This document shows positions 1 to 8,460 of a stretch of DNA of 64,000 bases, piece by piece. Below the pieces are notes generated by a model. That model was not told where the DNA came from. It worked only from the letters and a program-made list of their open reading frames with translations, and searched no databases. The stretch's first letter is position 1. Every line of letters starts with the position of its first letter. Origin of the DNA: an uncultured Pseudomonadota bacterium (GTDB lineage Bacteria; Pseudomonadota; Alphaproteobacteria; RF32; CAG-239); assembly GCA_902495305.1 (NCBI GenBank), contig CABUWG010000002.1:11783-75782 (forward strand), read 5' to 3'. The position numbers and the translations under genes were made by a program.

Positions 1-685
1 TACCGGACAGATAAATGTCATCGGCAGGCATATAATAAATTTCATCACGAGAAAACGGCAGATATCCCTGCCCGTACAACGGCCTTTCTTTAGAAATGGA
101 CGGCACGGTAATGGTCGTAAAGCCATGAGCCGCCAGCTTGTCCAAAACCATCATATGAATAGCCAGCTCCAGCTTTGCCAGCTCGTTTTTAATGGCATAG
201 GTACGCGCGCCCGAAACCTTGGCGATTCGTTCCATCTCGCTCCAGTCGTTAAGCTCCATCAATTCAACATGGTCACGCGGCTTAAACTCAAACTTGCGCG
301 GCTCGCCGACCTTGCGTCTGACCACATTGGCGGAATCATCGGGGCCAACCGGACTTTGCGGACTGGGCATATTCGGCATTCTGAGCATAATCTCGTCAAA
401 TTTGGCCTTAACGGCATCAAGCTCTTCCAGCTCTTTTTTCAGCTCTTCGCCGATTTCCTTACTCTTGGCAATAATTGCCGGACGTTCTTCGGCAGAAGCG
501 GATTTAATGGCATTACTGAGCTTATTTTTCTCTTCTGATTTTGCCTGTGATGAGGTCTTAAGCTTGTTCATCTCAAGATACAGGTTTTCCAGTTCATCCA
601 GACTGATAACCTTGCCGTAGCCTTTTTTATCCAGTCCTTCCTGAATAAGCGGCTTATTCTCAATAATGTATTTTATATCCAACAT
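1..685 (-). CDS. serS: seryl-tRNA synthetase, N-terminal part (3' end runs off window)
   Basis: Manual minus-strand translation from ATG at 683-685 gives MLDIKYIIENKPLIQEGLDKKGYGK...PRKFEFKPRDHVELMEL...GQGYLPF. This matches the SerRS N-terminal coiled-coil arm and the start of the class II core. It is absent from the ORF track because it has no stop inside the window. Confidence 0.7.
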   Translation of the reverse strand, partial: MLDIKYIIENKPLIQEGLDKKGYGKVISLDELENLYLEMNKLKTSSQAKSEEKNKLSNAIKSASAEERPAIIAKSKEIGEELKKELEELDAVKAKFDEIMLRMPNMPSPQSPVGPDDSANVVRRKVGEPRKFEFKPRDHVELMELNDWSEMERIAKVSGARTYAIKNELAKLELAIHMMVLDKLAAHGFTTITVPSISKERPLYGQGYLPFSRDEIYYMPADDIYLSG

Positions 686-883
686 CTTATAACTGTCCTA
701 AAATTTTAATTAATTCTATCGGACTGTTAGAGTAGCAATTTTACAAATAAATACAACACAAAAATGCAGTCTGTATACGAAAATATGCAAGAAGAAAGCG
801 ATTCGCATTTCATTCAGTGTTACAAACGCCGTCCTCACGGCATTTTATTCTTCGGCTTTTTCCCGAACCGGCATCAGCCATAC

Positions 884-918
884 AAAAAGGGAGAAAACGC
901 ATTCCCTCCCCCTTTCTG
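884..918 (-). terminator. rho-independent terminator downstream of the 920..1741 gene (minus strand)
   Basis: On the minus strand GGGAG-ggaatgcgtttt-CTCCC is followed by TTTTTGT. Confidence 0.45.
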
Positions 919-919
919 T

Positions 920-1741
920 CTAGTTTCCGATGTTAAGGTTAACTTTGTTCCAGCCGCCGGTTTTCTTTTCCTCCTGCGGCTTTCCGTCTTCCCAGCCGCG
1001 AACAGGCTGTTTTCGTTTGTTAATCAGCGCTTTTTGTTCTTCCGTCTGAGCCACGCCCACCGGCAAAAGCTGATTTAGCAAAGCCGGCGACACAAAATCC
1101 TGCCGTTTTTTCAGCAGCGGATCAACAATACTGTCAACCTTGTCGGCAGACGGCTTCAAGTTAAAAGTTTTTACAGAACCGCCGTAAAAAACCGAAAGAG
1201 AATGACAAGGCGAAGACAACAAAACATCGGTATTATCCACCCCACGCACAAACCGCAGCATGATTCGCGGATTGATAATGCAATTTTCTGTTTTTTCAAA
1301 ATCCACATTCCCCGGCGTCTTCAAAAAGCTGCTAACCACGTCCTCCCGCTGTTCTTTGCTCAAAACGCCGCAAAAACCTTTTAAGGCCATGCCGTCCATG
1401 TTATATCCGGAATAAGTATTGCTGCGGCTGGCTACTTCATAACAAAAAACCTGTTCGGCATCTGTAATATTTTCCAGCGCCGGCCGGCCGATACTGTCAA
1501 TAATCGGTTGCAACACTTCGTCTTTGGCTGTTTTTTGCACACGGGGTTCGGCAGCCTGCGCCTCCTTGTCGCCTTCCCTGCGCCAGCCGTCCTTATCTCC
1601 CTGAAAAGACTGCACGCCCTCGGCCTCTATTCCCAGCCCCGACAATTCATCAGCCACGCCGCCGGAAAAATCATCAGCGGCCCGAACCTCTGAAAGCACA
1701 CAAAATATTCCTGCAACTGTCAGCACAAACAATCTGTTCAT
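920..1741 (-). CDS. hypothetical secreted protein, last gene of the prepilin-like operon
   Basis: The ORF continues on the minus strand. The probable start is the internal ATG at 1741 (MNRLFVLTVAGIFCVLSEVRA, signal-peptide-like) preceded by GAGGGAG. No recognisable domain. Confidence 0.5.
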   Translation of the reverse strand: MNRLFVLTVAGIFCVLSEVRAADDFSGGVADELSGLGIEAEGVQSFQGDKDGWRREGDKEAQAAEPRVQKTAKDEVLQPIIDSIGRPALENITDAEQVFCYEVASRSNTYSGYNMDGMALKGFCGVLSKEQREDVVSSFLKTPGNVDFEKTENCIINPRIMLRFVRGVDNTDVLLSSPCHSLSVFYGGSVKTFNLKPSADKVDSIVDPLLKKRQDFVSPALLNQLLPVGVAQTEEQKALINKRKQPVRGWEDGKPQEEKKTGGWNKVNLNIGN

Positions 1742-1875
1742 CTTTTCTCCCTCATGCTGTCTTTTTTCTGATATAACATAATCATTATAAAACAAAATTC
1801 CATCCAAAATCTTAACATACCAAAAAATCCCCAAGAAAAAACCTCCGCATAACAACGGAGGCCTTTCCCTGATGA

Positions 1876-4737
1876 TTAGAACGGATCATTGTATTTAAGC
1901 GTCGGGTCGTTCAAACGTTCAACATACCCGCTGTCTTTGCTGGTATAACCGACCCTTACTTTCGTTAACTGGTCATAGCGGTCAACCAAAGTATCATTCT
2001 GAAAATCATTTTTTTCTTTACGACGGTTAAAGTAGCAATAAACATTGGAAATACCGACAATCTGCTTGTTCCAAACCTCAAACAGGTTCCAGATAACGTC
2101 ATCGTCAGCCCAGCTTGATCCCAGACCAATCTGGTTGGCATAAGTCTGATAGTCCTTCGCCGGATACAGGAAACCGATCGCCGCATTCCAGCCGTAGCTG
2201 GTACCGCCGCTGTCTTTGACCGACACAAAAGACGTATTCAGCCAGGTACTCTTCTGGAAAGTCAATGCCTTTTTGTAGCCCTCGTAAGTATCCCAGCTGT
2301 CAGATTCCGGCCACAGCAGCGCATTCGGATCGCGGTTGATTTGCAACTCGATTTCATTTCTAGCACCGCTGCTTTTTTCCACCGGGTGACCGGCCTGAGC
2401 CATAGCCCAGCTGATCGGGCTCAGCGTCGCAACCTTCAAATACCCCGGCGGACAAGTCGGCGCCGGCACAAAACCGAGCCACGGGCTGGTTTCGCATTTA
2501 AAGGTCGACGAAGCGCAACTTTTAACATAGCTCTTCATCGTAATCGTCCCCGAACCAAACAGCGCCGAGGTATCCAGCGGAAACGAACCGGAATCGTCCG
2601 GCGTGCCGTTTCCGGACATCAGCCAGTTCAAAGACCCGCCGCCGGCAGTGCAGTTTTTGGTCGCGCAATATGTGCCGTCCAGAACATAAATACCTTTATT
2701 GATAAAGTCCGGCAGAATATCACTCAGTCGGGCGCCGCCGCGCGTTATCAGCTTAATATCGTGCATAACCGAAGTATACGCCGGATTGACCTGATATTCG
2801 TCATAAAGCGTCTTGCCGGAACTGGAAGCATAACCTGATTGATACGCATTATCCGGCACCTTAATATGGCTCACCAGACGGTCCGCCAGAATATAGCCGT
2901 TCGGATCACTTTTGTCTGAAGTCGCATCATTGTTGCGTGCAATTTCAATCACGCCTTTGCGTACATAAACGCTGGCATCCGGCTTGGTACCGTCGGTATA
3001 ATTGGTATCAATGGCAAAAATCTTGTCACCGGCCGCCGATGAGGCAATAAAGTTGGCGTCATTCATAACCTTAACTTCTTTGTCTGCCGGATTCACTTCA
3101 AAAATCGTCGTATCCAAATCATTCTGAACCGTCAGCACACCGTTATTAATAGCCATATTGCCATCATTAACATTCATATCAGCATTATTAACATCAACCG
3201 TGGGCAAAAGACCATCCAGTCCACTGTCAACGACCAAAGTACCGGTTCCGTCACCGACCGCAAAATGCGGCGTATCGGCATAAACCTCATTCGCCTTCAT
3301 TTTAATCAACTCGTCTGCAACTGAAAATCCGCCCGTCCCGTCTGGATTCCCAACCATAAAATTGTTAACCAGAATCCTCACGCTGTCAGAATCAGTCACA
3401 AGATTAAAATTATCGGTACAATTCCCCTGAGCATCCGGTTTGCAGCCTACCCGCAACTGATTTTTAACATCAAGGTCTATCATATCAACCGGTTTGTCAA
3501 ACTTAACCTCGTCCCGAAAACGCGCCGGACCGTTCACATCCAAAATATAATGAGGATCATAGTCATTAGGCATATTTCCAACAACCACACGCTTCAAATT
3601 AGATGTTCCCTCAACGGTCAAATTTGCATTAATTGTTGTATTACCTCCGGCATCCACCTGAAACTTACCGCCGCCGGCAGAAAGGCTTCCGGTAATCTCG
3701 GCGCTGCCGGCTTTCAGCAGTTCTTTAATCGTGGCCGTCAGAGCCTCCAAATGGCCTCCTACGGTAGCATCTCCTCCCACATCAAGCTTTCCGTCAATAT
3801 TACCGTTTCCGCCCACGTCAATATTTCCGCCGATATTCGCATTACCGGTACCTTCAATGGTCAAACCGCTGCCGTTTTGCAGCAAAATCGCCTGATCTTT
3901 CTCTCCCAAACCATTACCGGTCACAATCATCTGCTTCACGTTTTCAATGTTATGATGAGCTTTGTCATCACCCATATAAAGCGTGGTTTCCATCGTATTC
4001 AGCCACGGTTCTTCTTCCATTCTCACACGGTGCAAAACGTTCTCGCCGCTGTTGTTGCCGCCGGAAATCGCCCGAATGGACGTCGCCATAATGGTGTTTT
4101 CTTTTAATTTTGCTGTCTGCAATTTAAAATCGGCCGGATCAATCGTCCAAACGCCTTGCACACCCTGAATAACCTTTTTCTTATCCGCTCCTGTCCGGAA
4201 AATACCGGCATTTGTACCAATCATCGAGGCAATGCGCGAGGCTCTGAGGATTGGCATTTCCTGCGTTTCTGCCGGCGTAGTCACCAGCAAAGCCGTCAAA
4301 TCATGACGTTCGTCATTGTCAAAATCACGTTTTTTAACAATAACTTCCATGTCTTTAAAAGTTTTGGAACTGGCATTAAAGCCATAAGGCAGATATTCGC
4401 AAAAATGCTCAAGCGGCACACTTTCAACACCGCCGGAAAAATTATAAGTTTGACTTGTCGCGCCTTTGCAGTTTGACGTAACTTTTTTAGAACCGTCTCC
4501 CAAACCAACAATCGTGTTGTAGTTGTCAGACAGATAAGTATCAATCCCTTCCATCACAATACGGATTTGTCCGGCGGCATTAATATCCTGCAGCTCGGTT
4601 GTTCTTTCCGCCGCTTTTTTATAAAGCATCGGAGTAACCATGGCAATCAGGCCCAGCATGGCCATTGCCTCAATCAACAGGCTTCCTGCCTGCGATTTCT
4701 TTTCATCAAAAACCCGAACCATTGTTTTTCTCCTCAT
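1876..4737 (-). CDS. 953-aa prepilin-type N-terminal domain protein (TadG/pseudopilin-like giant minor pilin) with glycine-rich beta-helix-like repeats
   Basis: N-terminus ...KKSQAG|SLLIEAMAMLGLIAMVTPML fits a class-III prepilin cleavage motif (G, Glu at +5, hydrophobic helix). The central segment has repeated GGN(I/L)DVGG / TVGG units. Confidence 0.6.
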   Translation of the reverse strand: MRRKTMVRVFDEKKSQAGSLLIEAMAMLGLIAMVTPMLYKKAAERTTELQDINAAGQIRIVMEGIDTYLSDNYNTIVGLGDGSKKVTSNCKGATSQTYNFSGGVESVPLEHFCEYLPYGFNASSKTFKDMEVIVKKRDFDNDERHDLTALLVTTPAETQEMPILRASRIASMIGTNAGIFRTGADKKKVIQGVQGVWTIDPADFKLQTAKLKENTIMATSIRAISGGNNSGENVLHRVRMEEEPWLNTMETTLYMGDDKAHHNIENVKQMIVTGNGLGEKDQAILLQNGSGLTIEGTGNANIGGNIDVGGNGNIDGKLDVGGDATVGGHLEALTATIKELLKAGSAEITGSLSAGGGKFQVDAGGNTTINANLTVEGTSNLKRVVVGNMPNDYDPHYILDVNGPARFRDEVKFDKPVDMIDLDVKNQLRVGCKPDAQGNCTDNFNLVTDSDSVRILVNNFMVGNPDGTGGFSVADELIKMKANEVYADTPHFAVGDGTGTLVVDSGLDGLLPTVDVNNADMNVNDGNMAINNGVLTVQNDLDTTIFEVNPADKEVKVMNDANFIASSAAGDKIFAIDTNYTDGTKPDASVYVRKGVIEIARNNDATSDKSDPNGYILADRLVSHIKVPDNAYQSGYASSSGKTLYDEYQVNPAYTSVMHDIKLITRGGARLSDILPDFINKGIYVLDGTYCATKNCTAGGGSLNWLMSGNGTPDDSGSFPLDTSALFGSGTITMKSYVKSCASSTFKCETSPWLGFVPAPTCPPGYLKVATLSPISWAMAQAGHPVEKSSGARNEIELQINRDPNALLWPESDSWDTYEGYKKALTFQKSTWLNTSFVSVKDSGGTSYGWNAAIGFLYPAKDYQTYANQIGLGSSWADDDVIWNLFEVWNKQIVGISNVYCYFNRRKEKNDFQNDTLVDRYDQLTKVRVGYTSKDSGYVERLNDPTLKYNDPF

Positions 4738-4739
4738 CC

Positions 4740-5405
4740 TTACTCAAACGGCGTTACATAAACCAGACAGCGGTTACAGTTTGCACAGGCGCAGGCTGTG
4801 CTGAAATTTCCGTTGTCAACCACATAATTGGGAATATATACCATCGTATCCTCACGTCCTTTAACCGCCATTTTATAATTCTTATCGCCGCTGTGCCCGC
4901 CTGAAGCCTTGTCTGAAGGATCCAAATGGACAGCATAACCGAAGCTGGTATCCGTTCCCAGAATATTTTGCGCGGCTTTCAATAAATCGTTCGTCGGCGT
5001 ATTCGAACTCAGATTAAGCCACTTTGGCGGAATATACCCGTATGTTATCAGATACCTCATGGCATCGGGAGACGTGCAGTCGGCAATTCCCTGATCCCAG
5101 TTGTCTTTTCTCAGGCAATAGAGCTCTGTGGTAAAACTCCCGTCACAATTATACCCGTAGGGCAAAAAGTCTTTCAGGATCGTATCGCAAGTCAGCTCTT
5201 CTTCCAGATAAGACATGCCGGTTTTGTTCAGCGGCGATGCCAGCCACCGGACATATTCCTGCCCCGCACGCTGCTGGATGACCAGTTGCGAAACCACAAC
5301 CTCGGCCTGCGGCTCAATCTTAACCTCCCGCATATCGCCGCGGACAGAAAGGTTATATGAATACAACAGCACCATAAAGGTTGCCAAAATCATCCAGATA
5401 TACAT
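4740..5405 (-). CDS. hypothetical membrane-anchored protein, first gene of the prepilin-like operon
   Basis: 221-aa ORF with an N-terminal TM helix (MYIWMILATFMVLLYSY). It lies 3 bp upstream of the 953-aa gene on the same strand. Confidence 0.5.
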   Translation of the reverse strand: MYIWMILATFMVLLYSYNLSVRGDMREVKIEPQAEVVVSQLVIQQRAGQEYVRWLASPLNKTGMSYLEEELTCDTILKDFLPYGYNCDGSFTTELYCLRKDNWDQGIADCTSPDAMRYLITYGYIPPKWLNLSSNTPTNDLLKAAQNILGTDTSFGYAVHLDPSDKASGGHSGDKNYKMAVKGREDTMVYIPNYVVDNGNFSTACACANCNRCLVYVTPFE

Positions 5406-5678
5406 TGCCTAAAGTTCCTAAAAAAAACCGCTTTTTATTATTTATAATAGCACCAAATGCCAAAAATTCATAACAAAAAACAGCCGGCTTGCTCAGAATT
5501 CACAAAACTGTAACAACAAATTATCGTCAACTTTATCAGAAAAAACATAATTAAAGGTTAAAATCGCCGTTTTCCGCCGTTTTTTTTGAAGTTTAATTTG
5601 ATAAGTGCGTTTTTTGCATTTATTTCTGAAAAAAATGTTCTAAAATAAGTCAAATTGCAAAAACTACGGAGTATTCTG

Positions 5679-6200
5679 ATGGCCGGCTTAAATGATTTTG
5701 ATGATGACCTCAAAGACAATCCTTATACCCAGAAAGACAACAAAAAAATTCTGTTGTTTCTGGTGCCGGCGTTGATTGTCATCGGCATAATCGTCGGACT
5801 GTATTTTTTGTTTATTCCCAAATCGGACGATTCCGAAAGCCTTGGCTACAGCATTGTTGAAAAAGAAGAAAACGACACCAAAACGATTACCGTTTTTTAT
5901 GACTTGCCGGAAATTTCCGTTCAGCTCCAAAGCGCGGATTCGCAAAACGCCGTGGTTAAAATCAAAATTAATATTGAACTTTCCAAAATGGAGGATATAA
6001 AAACAATAGAAAGCCTTATGCCACAAATCACCGATGCCGCCGTCACTCATGTTTCGGAACTCTCCCAAAATGAGATTAGCGGCGCCGAAGGTCTGTATTG
6101 GCTTAAGGAAGAGCTCCTGTACCGGCTGTCGCTGATTGCCGCGCCGGTAAAAATTTCAAACCTGAACTTCAAACGGTTTGAAATCCAGAAAACTAACTAA
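5679..6200 (+). CDS. fliL: flagellar basal body-associated protein FliL
   Basis: MAGLNDFDDDLKDNPYTQKDNKKILLFLVPALIVIGIIVGLYF... has FliL architecture: a short cytoplasmic N-terminus, one TM helix and a periplasmic domain. GGAG lies 9 nt upstream of ATG 5679 (the track ORF starts earlier at 5655). Confidence 0.7.
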   Translation: MAGLNDFDDDLKDNPYTQKDNKKILLFLVPALIVIGIIVGLYFLFIPKSDDSESLGYSIVEKEENDTKTITVFYDLPEISVQLQSADSQNAVVKIKINIELSKMEDIKTIESLMPQITDAAVTHVSELSQNEISGAEGLYWLKEELLYRLSLIAAPVKISNLNFKRFEIQKTN

Positions 6201-6218: not shown

Positions 6219-7301
6219 GTGGCTGAAGAACAGGAAAAGAAAGAAGGGCAACAACCCGACAACAAAAACTGGGCAGATATGATCGAGATCAACGAAAACA
6301 TCTCGGCAAATCCAGACGACACGGCAGACAGCGCAGATTCCCGCATACTCAATCAGGAAGAAATCGACAGCCTGCTGGGCTATTCCTCCGGCGAAGACGA
6401 TGACCGGCGCAATCTAAAAACCGGCGTGCAGGCCATTTTAAATTCGGCAATGGTTTCTTATGAACGCCTGCCGATGCTTGAAATCGTTTTTGACCGCCTG
6501 ATTCGCCTGATGGCAACCTCTTTGAGAAATTTTACGCAGGATAACGTTGAGGTTTCGCTTGAAAGTATTGAATCCATGCGTTTCGGCGAATATCTCGATT
6601 CGCTCACCATTCCGACTTTGCTCGGCGTGTTCAAAGCCGAAGAATGGGACAATTATGCACTGGTTTCGCTCGACAGCGGCATTGTCTACTCAATCGTCGA
6701 CGTTTTGCTCGGCGGCCGCCGCGGCACTGCCGCCATGCGCATTGAAGGCCGTCCGTATACCACCATCGAACTCAATATCGTCAAAGACATGATACAAATC
6801 ATCTTATCGGATTTGTCCACCGCTTTTGACCCGATAACCTCCGTCAACTTCACCTATGACCGTCTGGAAACCAATCCGCGTTTTGCCACCATTTCGCGCT
6901 TGTCCAATGCCGTTATCGTTGCCCGTCTCCGCATTGACATGGAAGACCGCGGCGGCAAAGTTGACCTCATGATTCCCTATGCCACGCTTGAACCGGTTCG
7001 CGAACTTTTGCTGCAAATGTTCATGGGCGAGCGCTTCGGACGTGATGCCATCTGGGAAAACCACCTCACGGAACAGCTTTGGGATACGGAAGTCCAGATT
7101 AATGCCGTGTTAAAAGAATGTATGATAAAGCTCGGAGACATTGCCACTTGGGAAAAAGGCTCTTTTCTGGATCTGGATATGCTGCCGACCGATAACGTGG
7201 CACTGGTTTGCGGCGATGTTCCGCTGTTGACCGGTTCAATGGGACGCAAAAACGAACATGTCGTCATAAAAGTAAACGGAAAGGCTGAAAAAAATGGATA
7301 G
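6219..7301 (+). CDS. fliM: flagellar motor switch protein FliM (GTG start)
   Basis: N-terminal LNQEEIDSLLG motif (CheY-P binding type) plus a FliM middle domain. GAGGGGA RBS before GTG 6219. Confidence 0.8.
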   Translation: MAEEQEKKEGQQPDNKNWADMIEINENISANPDDTADSADSRILNQEEIDSLLGYSSGEDDDRRNLKTGVQAILNSAMVSYERLPMLEIVFDRLIRLMATSLRNFTQDNVEVSLESIESMRFGEYLDSLTIPTLLGVFKAEEWDNYALVSLDSGIVYSIVDVLLGGRRGTAAMRIEGRPYTTIELNIVKDMIQIILSDLSTAFDPITSVNFTYDRLETNPRFATISRLSNAVIVARLRIDMEDRGGKVDLMIPYATLEPVRELLLQMFMGERFGRDAIWENHLTEQLWDTEVQINAVLKECMIKLGDIATWEKGSFLDLDMLPTDNVALVCGDVPLLTGSMGRKNEHVVIKVNGKAEKNG

Positions 7302-7791
7302 TTTTGAAATAATCATAAATGTCGCCATCATTGCCCTGCTGATACCGACGATTATTTTTGCTTACCGGCTGAACCGCAGCCTGACGGCTCTCAGAGAAAA
7401 CCAAAACTCTCTGGCAAAACTGATCGGCGCGCTAAATGACGCAACCAACAAAGCCGAAAACAGCATTCCGAAACTCAAATCTGCCACCGAACATTCGTCC
7501 GAAGACCTGAAAGAAGTCGTTGACAATGCCAAAACCATAAAAGACGATTTGTTGTTTATCAACCAGCGCGCCGACAGTCTGGCCGACCGTCTGGAACAGG
7601 TTATCCATAACAGCCGCGGCAATGTAAAAGACGAGAAAAAGAATAAAACCTCGGCTCAGATACTGAATATTGATAAAGCAACAAACACAAATTCCGGCGG
7701 TCAGGACGAACCGGATGATGTTTTTTCCGTTGAAGATTCCCGTTCCGAGGCCGAGTTGGAACTGCTAAAAGCCCTGAGATCAATAAAATAA
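7294..7791 (+). CDS. flagellar-operon membrane-anchored coiled-coil protein of unknown function
   Basis: Overlaps the fliM stop by 8 bp. It has an N-terminal TM helix followed by coiled-coil. Confidence 0.5.
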   Translation: MDSFEIIINVAIIALLIPTIIFAYRLNRSLTALRENQNSLAKLIGALNDATNKAENSIPKLKSATEHSSEDLKEVVDNAKTIKDDLLFINQRADSLADRLEQVIHNSRGNVKDEKKNKTSAQILNIDKATNTNSGGQDEPDDVFSVEDSRSEAELELLKALRSIK

Positions 7792-7800
7792 GGTCAGACA

Positions 7801-8445
7801 ATGATAAACAAAATAGCCAGCCGCATCCGCATTTTACCGATTTTTATATTTTTTGCCGTCTTAACGCTTTCCGTTCGCGTCAACACGGTTTTTGATCTTT
7901 TAAAACAAAAAGAAACCAAAACCATCAGCATTTCCCAACAAGCCGCACAAGCGCAGGAAGAAATGAAAAAAGAAAACAACGACCTGAGCAAAGCCCTGAA
8001 CAGCAATACGTCGGCCGCCGGCTCGTCATCTGCCCCCAATAACAGCTTTTCGCAATCAGAAATCCTGATTCTGCAAGAACTCGCCGAACGACGCGAAGCC
8101 TTGGACCTGCGCAGCAAAGAAATTGATAAAAAAGCCATCCAGCTCAAAGTCGCGGAAGAAGAAATTGATAAAAAACTTGCACAATTGAAGGAATATGAAG
8201 CCAAGCTGCAAAAGCTCGTCCGCGAATATAACGACAAGGAAAAAGAAAAAATATCATCACTGACCCGTTTGTATTCGACCATGAAACCCAAAGATGCTGC
8301 CCGTATTTTCAATACGTTGGAACTGCATATTCTGATTCCGTTGTTAAAAGAAATGAAACCTTCGGTTTCTTCCGCCATCATCTCGCAAATGGACGCCGCC
8401 AAAGCCAAGGCCGTTACAACCGAACTGATCGGCAACAATTTCTAA
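7801..8445 (+). CDS. MotE-like flagellar motility protein (MgtE_N-type helical repeats)
   Basis: Signal/TM N-terminus, Q/E/K-rich coiled-coil, and a C-terminal MKPKDAARIFNTLELHILIPLLKEMKPSVSSAIISQMDAAKA repeat typical of MgtE_N/MotE. Confidence 0.55.
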   Translation: MINKIASRIRILPIFIFFAVLTLSVRVNTVFDLLKQKETKTISISQQAAQAQEEMKKENNDLSKALNSNTSAAGSSSAPNNSFSQSEILILQELAERREALDLRSKEIDKKAIQLKVAEEEIDKKLAQLKEYEAKLQKLVREYNDKEKEKISSLTRLYSTMKPKDAARIFNTLELHILIPLLKEMKPSVSSAIISQMDAAKAKAVTTELIGNNF

Positions 8446-8460
8446 CCAAAGGCAAAAGCA

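Follow-up and report, generated by a model that had tools for sequence, protein, structure and literature searches.

The stretch of DNA analysed here (the window; 64,000 nucleotides of contig CABUWG010000002.1) derives from an uncultured alphaproteobacterium of the RF32 lineage and carries three open reading frames (ORFs) on the minus strand close to its 5′ end, termed genes A, B and C. Gene A (4740..5405) encodes a 221-amino acid membrane protein without a leader, gene B (1876..4722) a 948-amino acid PilV-like giant type IV pilin, and gene C (920..1741) a Sec-exported protein of 273 amino acids, counted from its ATG, with four conserved cysteines. All three are found in the ORF list of the window at the positions that a first-pass annotation had given for a 221-amino acid transmembrane protein, a large ORF and a 273-amino acid signal-peptide protein. 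The flagellar gene fliL (5655-6200) is divergent from gene A, as had likewise been described, across a spacer of 249 bp, and is followed in the same direction, opposite to A-B-C, by fliM (6219-7301). Further downstream of gene C, and on the same strand as the three genes, lies serS. The remainder of the window is ordinary chromosome, with a ribosomal protein operon, secY, adk, rpoA, nucleoside phosphorylases, an AsmA-family protein and other housekeeping genes. The evidence presented below supports well the view that genes A and B constitute a conserved two-gene module centred on a giant type IV pilin of the PilV family.

The listed ORF of gene B (1876-4737; 953 amino acids) begins five codons upstream of the start adopted here. 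As an AGGAG Shine-Dalgarno sequence lies 7 nucleotides 5′ of the second ATG at 4722 and every homologue begins at the equivalent methionine, this codon is almost certainly the true start, such that the ORF described at first pass is retained and its 953-residue product is shortened to 948 residues. Genes A and B are then separated by 17 nucleotides, with the Shine-Dalgarno sequence present in this gap. The translated N-terminus of B presents a class III prepilin motif, consisting of a leader peptide (MVRVFDEKKSQAG; 4684..4722) that ends in an invariant glycine at position -1 (G13), a cut point predicted from the motif, and the residues SLLIE at the start of a hydrophobic α1-N helix (SLLIEAMAMLGLIAMVTPMLY; 4621..4683) with an invariant glutamate at +5 (E18; codon 4669-4671). 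In a regular-expression scan of the 64 kb in all six frames, the motif was found in B alone.

The class III motif, the glutamate at +5 and the hydrophobic helix reported in the first-pass annotation are borne out by an alignment of 73 homologues with a mean identity of ~37%, in which G13 and E18 are invariant. The motif is also kept in 117 of the 123 full-length cluster representatives recovered by an exhaustive search, the six exceptions being near-misses of the search pattern, N-terminally truncated calls and one protein (P0226) with a different N-terminus. Both A and B are under purifying selection, with dN/dS ratios against close orthologues of 0.08-0.14 and 0.08-0.13, respectively. A strictly kept buried glutamate is a trait of filament-forming pilins, and an ordinary signal anchor would not keep this residue and a glycine at fixed positions across such divergence. 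The fixation of both residues over so wide a range of sequences thus shows that the prepilin signal is genuine and selected.

Three parts can be delineated in the mature region of B. A PilV-like (Shufflon_N-like) pilin domain spans residues ~20-300 (3823..4665), a variable, Gly/Asn-rich β stalk spans residues ~300-584 (2971..3822) and a conserved C-terminal domain occupies residues 585-948 (1879..2970), all on the minus strand. When conservation is expressed as the fraction of the majority residue, the short, basic leader (residues 1-13) reaches 0.46, and the α1-N helix with its adjoining segment (residues 13-40, including G13 and E18) reaches 0.90, the second most conserved stretch measured. 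The values are 0.75 for α1-C (residues 41-70) and 0.53 for the PilV-like globular part (residues 71-270). A segment following the helix (YKKAAERTTELQDINAA) is unusually conserved (0.75-0.90). The stalk, taken as residues 271-584, is the least conserved part (0.32) and varies in length from 300 to 468 amino acids among the homologues, and the C-terminal domain averages 0.56. Within the latter, a near-invariant block (YQVNPAYTSVMHDIKLTTRGGARLSDILPDFINKGIYV; residues 640-682, window positions 2677-2805) reaches 0.94, and several cysteine and tryptophan residues of the domain are invariant as well.

The window protein B has no Pfam or NCBIfam match and falls below the hmmscan reporting level for PF04917 (Shufflon_N); its link to PilV was reached through homologues and by direct comparison, not through the Pfam scan of the window protein. 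Matches to PF04917 occur in 10 of 46 homologues. On rescanning seven homologues, four passed the gathering score of 27.5 bits, with P0009 doing so narrowly and P0035 falling just short (27.4 bits). The best match (45.2 bits) pairs residues 48-338 with profile positions 10-285, and hence covers the globular domain and not the helix alone. A tblastn search with one B homologue against 72,556 plasmids matched 1170 records (e-values down to 2e-16), and every plasmid match listed is annotated as pilV, 'shufflon system plasmid conjugative transfer pilus tip adhesin'. The B family profile aligns with a plasmid PilV with 99.3% probability (hhalign; e-value: 1.6e-20; B 55-299 to PilV 42-235), and a BLASTP comparison of the window B with the same PilV gives an e-value of 4e-12 across B residues 20-351. 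Sequence comparison thus gives good support to homology between the first ~300 residues of B and the constant region of PilV, the tip adhesin of the type IVb pili of IncI plasmids.

The likeness extends to particular features. The PilV proteins of IncI1 R64, IncI2 TP114 and PAPI-1 (PilV2), which belong to PF04917, also have a short basic leader, a glycine at -1 and a glutamate at +5, the plasmid PilV beginning with MKKKIHRG, the cut and then MVSIE, in the same leader-G/xxxxE pattern as B. The motifs DxYxxDN..IV, YLPxxF, IGxNGGY, GxQGxW and LYR..PELNxMxTxL are shared between PilV and B, and the parts follow in the same order, namely the pilin domain, the LYR..PELN motif, short Asn/Gly repeats and a terminal region. 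B is, however, about twice as long as PilV, its C-terminal domain is unrelated to that of PilV (no similarity was found between B's C-terminal domain and the C-terminal parts of PilV), and it is paired with the leaderless A. There is no shufflon, no Rci recombinase and no sfx-type repeat at the B locus; no repeat system was found in window positions 1-6000, and no recombinase among the scanned ORFs of the window. Furthermore, pilV is part of the type IVb pil operon of a conjugative plasmid or of an integrative and conjugative element (ICE), whereas B is chromosomal and has neither a pil operon nor conjugation genes nearby.

The first-pass annotation had taken B for a TadG- or pseudopilin-like protein, and its description as a minor-pilin- or adhesin-like prepilin is retained here, with the family changed to PilV (PF04917). 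Membership among the TadG/TadE-type proteins or the type II secretion pseudopilins would account for the class III signal, which is common to all these families, and Alphaproteobacteria most often build their type IV filaments with Tad systems. TadG, TadE and TadF (PF07811) share this signal with B and serve as minor subunits of the filament that is commonest in this class. The profiles proposed for checking this assignment, TadE-like (PF07811), N_methyl (PF07963) and type II secretion pseudopilin, nevertheless gave no match at an e-value of ≤1 in B or the 46 homologues, although models of short motifs may be lost in the HMMER filters, such that the result for N_methyl and the type II secretion pseudopilins is weak negative evidence. 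The globular domain of B differs from that of the Tad proteins and is specifically PilV-like, and no tad or gsp genes lie nearby. Membership of B in these families is contradicted by these results and is very improbable, to the point of being effectively excluded; the peptidase and the machine that would serve B could still be of the Tad type. Two further identities raised at first pass, PilY1 and an autotransporter, receive no support either, as neither the C-terminal propeller of PilY1 nor the autotransporter β-domain has a Pfam match in B or the 46 homologues.

The stalk contains the glycine-rich repeats (GNANIGGNIDVGGNGNIDGKLDVGGDATVGG) already pointed out at first pass. Weak Bactofilin-type matches (PF04519) occur in the stalks of 15 of the 46 homologues and are absent from the window B; P0084 alone passes the cut-off (28.6 against 27.9 bits), and the matches are read as a repeat-level likeness and not as family membership. 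In an exhaustive phmmer search of 1.84 billion representatives, the C-terminal domain was recovered from 348 clusters, and in all of the best 150 of these it stands at the C-terminus, in proteins of 900-1470 amino acids, fragmentary calls aside. The domain has no Pfam match and no sequence relative in the PDB, and PDB sequence profile searches with B, its C-terminal domain, A and C returned nothing usable.

The full-length AlphaFold2 model of B is mediocre (predicted local distance difference test score, pLDDT: 60; predicted template modelling score: 0.34) and is poor outside the N-terminal domain. Within its N-terminal domain, which is usable, residues 40-220 have pLDDT values of 72-88, with helices at residues 2-39 and 42-66 and the strands of a β-sheet; this domain has no significant Foldseek match. 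The stalk is modelled with low-confidence β strands. The separate model of the C-terminal region, the structure prediction suggested at first pass, reached a pLDDT of 46 and did not resolve the fold. Neither the full-length nor the C-terminal domain model has a significant Foldseek match in the PDB or BFVD. For both, the top PDB chains are those of Vibrio cholerae TcpB (e-value: 0.085-0.45; TM-score ≤ 0.31), obtained with low-confidence models, and the BFVD matches are tail-fibre-like and not significant, such that both may serve as leads only.

The product of gene A has its hydrophobic helix begin right at Met1 (MYIWMILATFMVLLY; MYIWVILATF...), and has no leader, no glycine at -1 and no glutamate at position 5. 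Residues M1, Y2 and W4 as well as four cysteines are invariant in 50 species, and the cysteine-rich domain is probably periplasmic. None of the 50 members has a Pfam family match, and the window A has no NCBIfam match either. A profile search of 5.8 billion proteins recovered just 74 proteins, of like kind and size and from similar metagenome-assembled genomes (MAGs), and no link to any known system. The A and B families align in hhalign with a probability of 62% (e-value: 7e-5; A 45-89 to B 59-119) across the end of α1 and the YLPYGF motif; with five sequences alone the probability was 18%. The co-linear region of A also aligns weakly to PilV. A is thus a probable, very diverged and leaderless pilin-like paralogue of B, an assignment for which the alignments are suggestive and which is not established.

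We suggest, with a rough probability of 0.45, that A and B act together as the priming or tip complex of a type IV filament whose assembly genes lie in another part of the genome. B would be inserted in the inner membrane with its N-terminus inside and cut after Gly13 by a prepilin peptidase, likewise encoded elsewhere in the genome, and would, with A, prime and cap a filament that is probably Tad-like or type IVb-like. GspK-type tip pilins provide a model for a topmost subunit without Glu5. By likeness to these, A could be the topmost subunit, as it has no Glu5 and its N-terminus is already free at the start of the helix. The stalk would hold the conserved C-terminal domain off the filament as an adhesin, where it would bind a conserved gut ligand, be it host mucus or glycan, or another cell. 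A processed, filament-docking pilin is favoured by the strict retention of Gly-1 and Glu+5, and PilV, TcpB and CofB function as prime and cap tip pilins (PMC10654706, PMC5297154, PMC6048534).

Several results weigh against this interpretation. Filament machinery was sought in the 64-kb window and the ±10-kb flanks of related loci. Among the scanned window ORFs of ≥150 amino acids, from which the minus-strand ORF 13650-14465 was left out, there is no pil, tad, cpa or gsp gene, in keeping with the first-pass observation that no pilus assembly genes adjoin gene B, and the window yielded no extension ATPase, platform protein, secretin, major pilin or A24 peptidase. The 10 kb on either side of B in ~78 species yielded none of these five either. 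No ORF of ≥100 amino acids in 1.81 Mb carries the T2SE Walker-A motif G.[TS]GSGK[ST]T or the A24 motif GxGDxK. Ten R64-type Pil proteins (the TcpQ-like protein, PilM, the secretin PilN, PilO2, PilP, the ATPase, the platform protein, the major pilin, the transglycosylase and the peptidase) gave no tblastn match in the window or any of the loci, PilV, the eleventh query, being the sole one to match. The characterised genes for PilV, TcpB and CofB, furthermore, all sit inside machinery operons, the C-terminal domain of B is conserved, the opposite of the variable adhesin ends of PilV, and the models of B have no significant structural match. A neighbourhood free of machinery is not in itself disqualifying, as type IVa minor-pilin operons commonly lie apart from the machinery genes.

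The same findings bear on a second explanation, in which B serves in the envelope independently of any filament, held in the inner membrane by its pilin-type helix, whether cleaved or not, and spanning the periplasm together with A in a fixed envelope or surface structure. This would fit the lack of assembly genes near B and of a leader and Glu5 in A, and the conservation of YKKAAERTTELQDINAA points to a fixed contact between proteins and not to the generic packing of a filament. The invariant Gly-1 and Glu+5 and the short basic leader, maintained over hundreds of diverged sequences, are however the signature of peptidase processing and subunit docking, and we know of no well-characterised PilV-type pilin that works without a type IV machine. 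We consider such an envelope protein unlikely, and place it directly after the tip complex.

One candidate for pilus machinery, a T2SSE fragment near A-B in locus L069, was rejected as a truncated VirB11-like remnant of a type IV secretion system (T4SS) with CagX and TrbI neighbours. Such VirB11-like T2SSE fragments, 61-186 amino acids in length (for example L069 3-332 and L092 10001-10357), are widespread in gut metagenomes (35 clusters), and in one 1.79-Mb contig lie beside CagX and TrbI genes; they seem to have arisen by truncation from a T4SS element.

The tip complex that we favour may be compared with two further groups of pilins. TcpB of V. cholerae and CofB of enterotoxigenic Escherichia coli prime and cap type IVb pili, which is the mechanism proposed here for B (PMC6048534). 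They share with B a three-part plan of pilin domain, β-rich linker and C-terminal domain, the last being β in TcpB and CofB, yet there is no sequence similarity between them and B, and tcpB and cofB lie inside machinery operons. PilB and PilC of Streptococcus sanguinis are modular pilins with grafted functional modules, and as in B the pilin domain acts as the carrier of a large extra module. These are, in contrast, type IVa pilins encoded in a pil locus, with recognisable modules (vWA, lectin), whereas the module of B has no recognisable family.

Relatives of B were found in 290 species in a scan of one genome per species of the GTDB. All are MAGs of uncultured Alphaproteobacteria from human, mouse, deer, rumen and chicken guts, 'Candidatus Scatocola' included, and the reading frames are intact in ~290 species. 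A lies directly upstream of B in 82 of 89 loci, and the setting is chromosomal, among housekeeping or flagellar genes, in all 89. The PilV family is otherwise encoded on plasmids or ICEs, and in L069 a truncated VirB11-like fragment lies 6-9 kb from A-B, both of which would suit a decaying remnant of the pil operon of an integrated conjugative plasmid or ICE. Against this stand the low dN/dS ratios (0.08-0.14), the intact frames, the fixed chromosomal setting and the lack of an integrase, a T4SS or a shufflon, as well as the origin of the L069 fragment from an unrelated T4SS element; a remnant is extremely improbable and effectively excluded. No report on pili or flagella was found in the literature on RF32.

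The usual gene order in the related loci is uvrB ... fliM, fliL on one strand and A, B, a terminator and C on the other, with C adjoining B in most loci. In one subclade (for example L037, L042, L043 and L087), A-B is inverted in place, such that C and A diverge and fliL comes next after B and its terminator. In another (L048, L058, L085 and others), C lies 6-8 kb away and fliP/fliO directly follow B. The far side of the A-B unit differs between loci, carrying either trpS/serS or PHO4/PhoU, indicating some rearrangement around the unit.

The first-pass annotation had described A, B and C as a three-gene operon. An intrinsic terminator (1831..1872, minus strand), with a GC-rich stem of 18 pairs and a U run, lies straight after the stop codon of B, and its region folds with -42.4 kcal/mol (z -3.85); equivalent hairpins lie 3′ of B in the inverted lineages. 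A TATAAT box read from the sequence (1784..1789, minus strand), about 43 nucleotides upstream of C, is the predicted promoter of that gene. On these grounds, and given the position of C elsewhere in other genomes, 6-8 kb off or across A, the predicted transcription unit comprises A and B and not the three genes. C has a Sec-type signal peptide (MNRLFVLTVAGIFCVLSEVRA) with a cut before ADD, and no Pfam, NCBIfam or PDB sequence match. It would be a separately transcribed periplasmic or secreted protein, loosely linked to A-B, which may or may not take part in their function.

In the A-fliL spacer, several blocks are conserved among lineages whose proteins are just 35-50% identical. An upstream element of the A-B promoter (TTGTTACAGTTTTGTGAA; 5499..5516, minus strand), with TGT half-sites 11 bp apart, was recognised from its conservation and is centred roughly 70 nucleotides upstream of the predicted transcription start. 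Exact matches to the pattern TGTTACA-N4-TGTKAA number 43 in 1.8 Mb, and 41 of these occurrences lie 98-118 nucleotides upstream of A on the strand of A. Variants of the element are kept upstream of A where A-B is inverted or unlinked from fliL, and the element thus belongs to A-B. A predicted extended -10 element of the form TGnTAnnAT (TGCTATTAT; 5444..5452, minus strand) occupies the same place upstream of A across lineages. Readings of this promoter as σ54- or σ28-dependent were ruled out by spacing on inspection. A different conserved block (ACGTTTATTTATAAAA..TATTATAAAAT) belongs to fliL and remains at that gene where A-B is inverted. A perfect CtrA-type box (TTAA-N7-TTAA) lies ~100 nucleotides upstream of fliL, 5′ of the fliL block, in L037, L042, L043, L045 and L087, all inverted lineages, to which it is restricted; in the A-fliL spacer of the window there is no TTAA-N7-TTAA, and TTAA-N3-TTAA alone is found (5547-5563). 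A-B and fliL thus each have their own promoter and terminator and were not shown to share any element, such that co-regulation is neither demonstrated nor excluded. The co-regulation with flagella envisaged at first pass is not supported, given these separate conserved promoter blocks and an adjacency to fliL that is inverted in one subclade and lost in at least four lineages.

The neighbourhood of A-B also raises the question of exaptation, whereby a pilin-derived A-B would now be a flagellar accessory, for example a periplasmic scaffold around the motor, anchored in the inner membrane, or a flagellum-linked surface sensor or adhesin. In 74 of the 89 loci, fliL/fliM are found no more than 10 kb from B, A-B still abuts fliL after the inversion of the segment, and fliP/fliO right after B in one subclade place flagellar genes on both sides of the unit. 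In L083, fliK and flgD lie 7 kb downstream. No pilus machinery is found anywhere near B, and the conserved C-terminal domain would suit a self-ligand better than a variable external one. There is also precedent for type IV pilus proteins in flagellar motors, in that PilM, PilN and PilO, as FcpM, FcpN and FcpO, are pilus-derived proteins of the motor cage in Helicobacter pylori and Campylobacter jejuni, bacteria without a pilus (PMC10823254, PMC11870540). The adjacency may, however, be inherited and not selected, as the uvrB-to-fliL region is syntenic across the clade, and an inversion preserves adjacency trivially. At least four lineages (L062, L069, L073 and L090, all with full flanks) have no flagellar gene within 10 kb of A-B, and A-B and fliL differ in their terminators and conserved promoter blocks. 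Strict retention of Gly-1 and Glu+5 would not be expected in a static anchor. The precedent, which is relevant to this explanation only, concerns alignment-complex proteins and not pilins; A, B and C show no homology to FcpM, FcpN or FcpO and no PilN or PilO Pfam match. Flagellar exaptation is likewise unlikely, and we place it after the envelope protein. A related proposal, which we regard as rather improbable, is that these genomes hold no type IV filament machine and that the flagellum has adopted A-B, either as a periplasmic structure associated with the motor or as a surface sensor coupled to the flagellum. If so, the precedent of PilMNO in flagella would be extended from alignment proteins to pilins.

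The known role of PilV-type pilins is that of adhesins which are encoded on plasmids and choose mating partners. What is new here is a PilV pilin domain with a conserved 360-residue head, which is a fixed chromosomal feature throughout a clade of uncultured Alphaproteobacteria from the gut, together with a previously undescribed leaderless pilin-like partner (A), the pair lying apart from assembly genes in the searched flanks. Protein A and the C-terminal domain of B thereby each define a family for which Pfam has no model. Should the filament machine of the favoured tip complex be encoded elsewhere, B would probably be the main adhesin of an abundant uncultured gut lineage and, to our knowledge, the largest modular pilin. 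Should there be no such machine, B would be an example of a pilin that functions without a pilus, possibly together with the flagellum.

Additional genes can be observed near the flagellar genes and the A-B unit. A plus-strand block 3′ of fliM in the window (7294-11595) encodes a DUF6468 protein, an MgtE_N-like protein and a 1044-amino acid signal-peptide protein without a Pfam match, with reading frames that overlap or abut and run into uvrB. Nearly all related loci share this block in syntenic position, its large protein varying from 859 to 1054 amino acids, and these proteins following fliM may be motor accessory proteins. In L048 (12947-14027), L058 and L085, fliP and a fliO-like gene on the minus strand are convergent with B and are followed by ATP synthase F0 genes, and C lies next to a gene taken, from its N-terminal sequence, for a prephenate dehydratase gene. 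In L083, a 975-amino acid autotransporter (8999-11926, plus strand; PF03797; e-value: 6.5e-53) is encoded 2 kb downstream of B and is followed by fliK and flgD.

Conserved cysteine pairs occur in A, B and C alike. A gene for a DsbA-like thioredoxin of about 240-250 amino acids recurs within a few kb of the A-B unit in loci L001, L005, L008 and L010; at the equivalent spot in the window, after uvrB, there are overlapping ORFs (13650-14465), the plus-strand one of which has no Pfam match.

Two adjoining giant ORFs on the minus strand of the window, of 1110 (30169-33501) and 942 amino acids (33728-36556), have no Pfam match and are unrelated to B. Their products are acidic and coiled-coil-like, and in each of them Gly/Ala-rich hydrophobic segments are clustered in the central or C-terminal part. 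A copy of the A-B promoter element with one mismatch (ATGTTACATTACTGTTAA; 33593-33610, minus strand) lies 92 nucleotides upstream of the 1110-amino acid ORF, the corresponding distance at gene A being 94 nucleotides, and a promoter-like site (TTGACA-N17-TAAATA) is found 3′ of this copy. Gene A and the 1110-amino acid ORF may therefore share a regulator.

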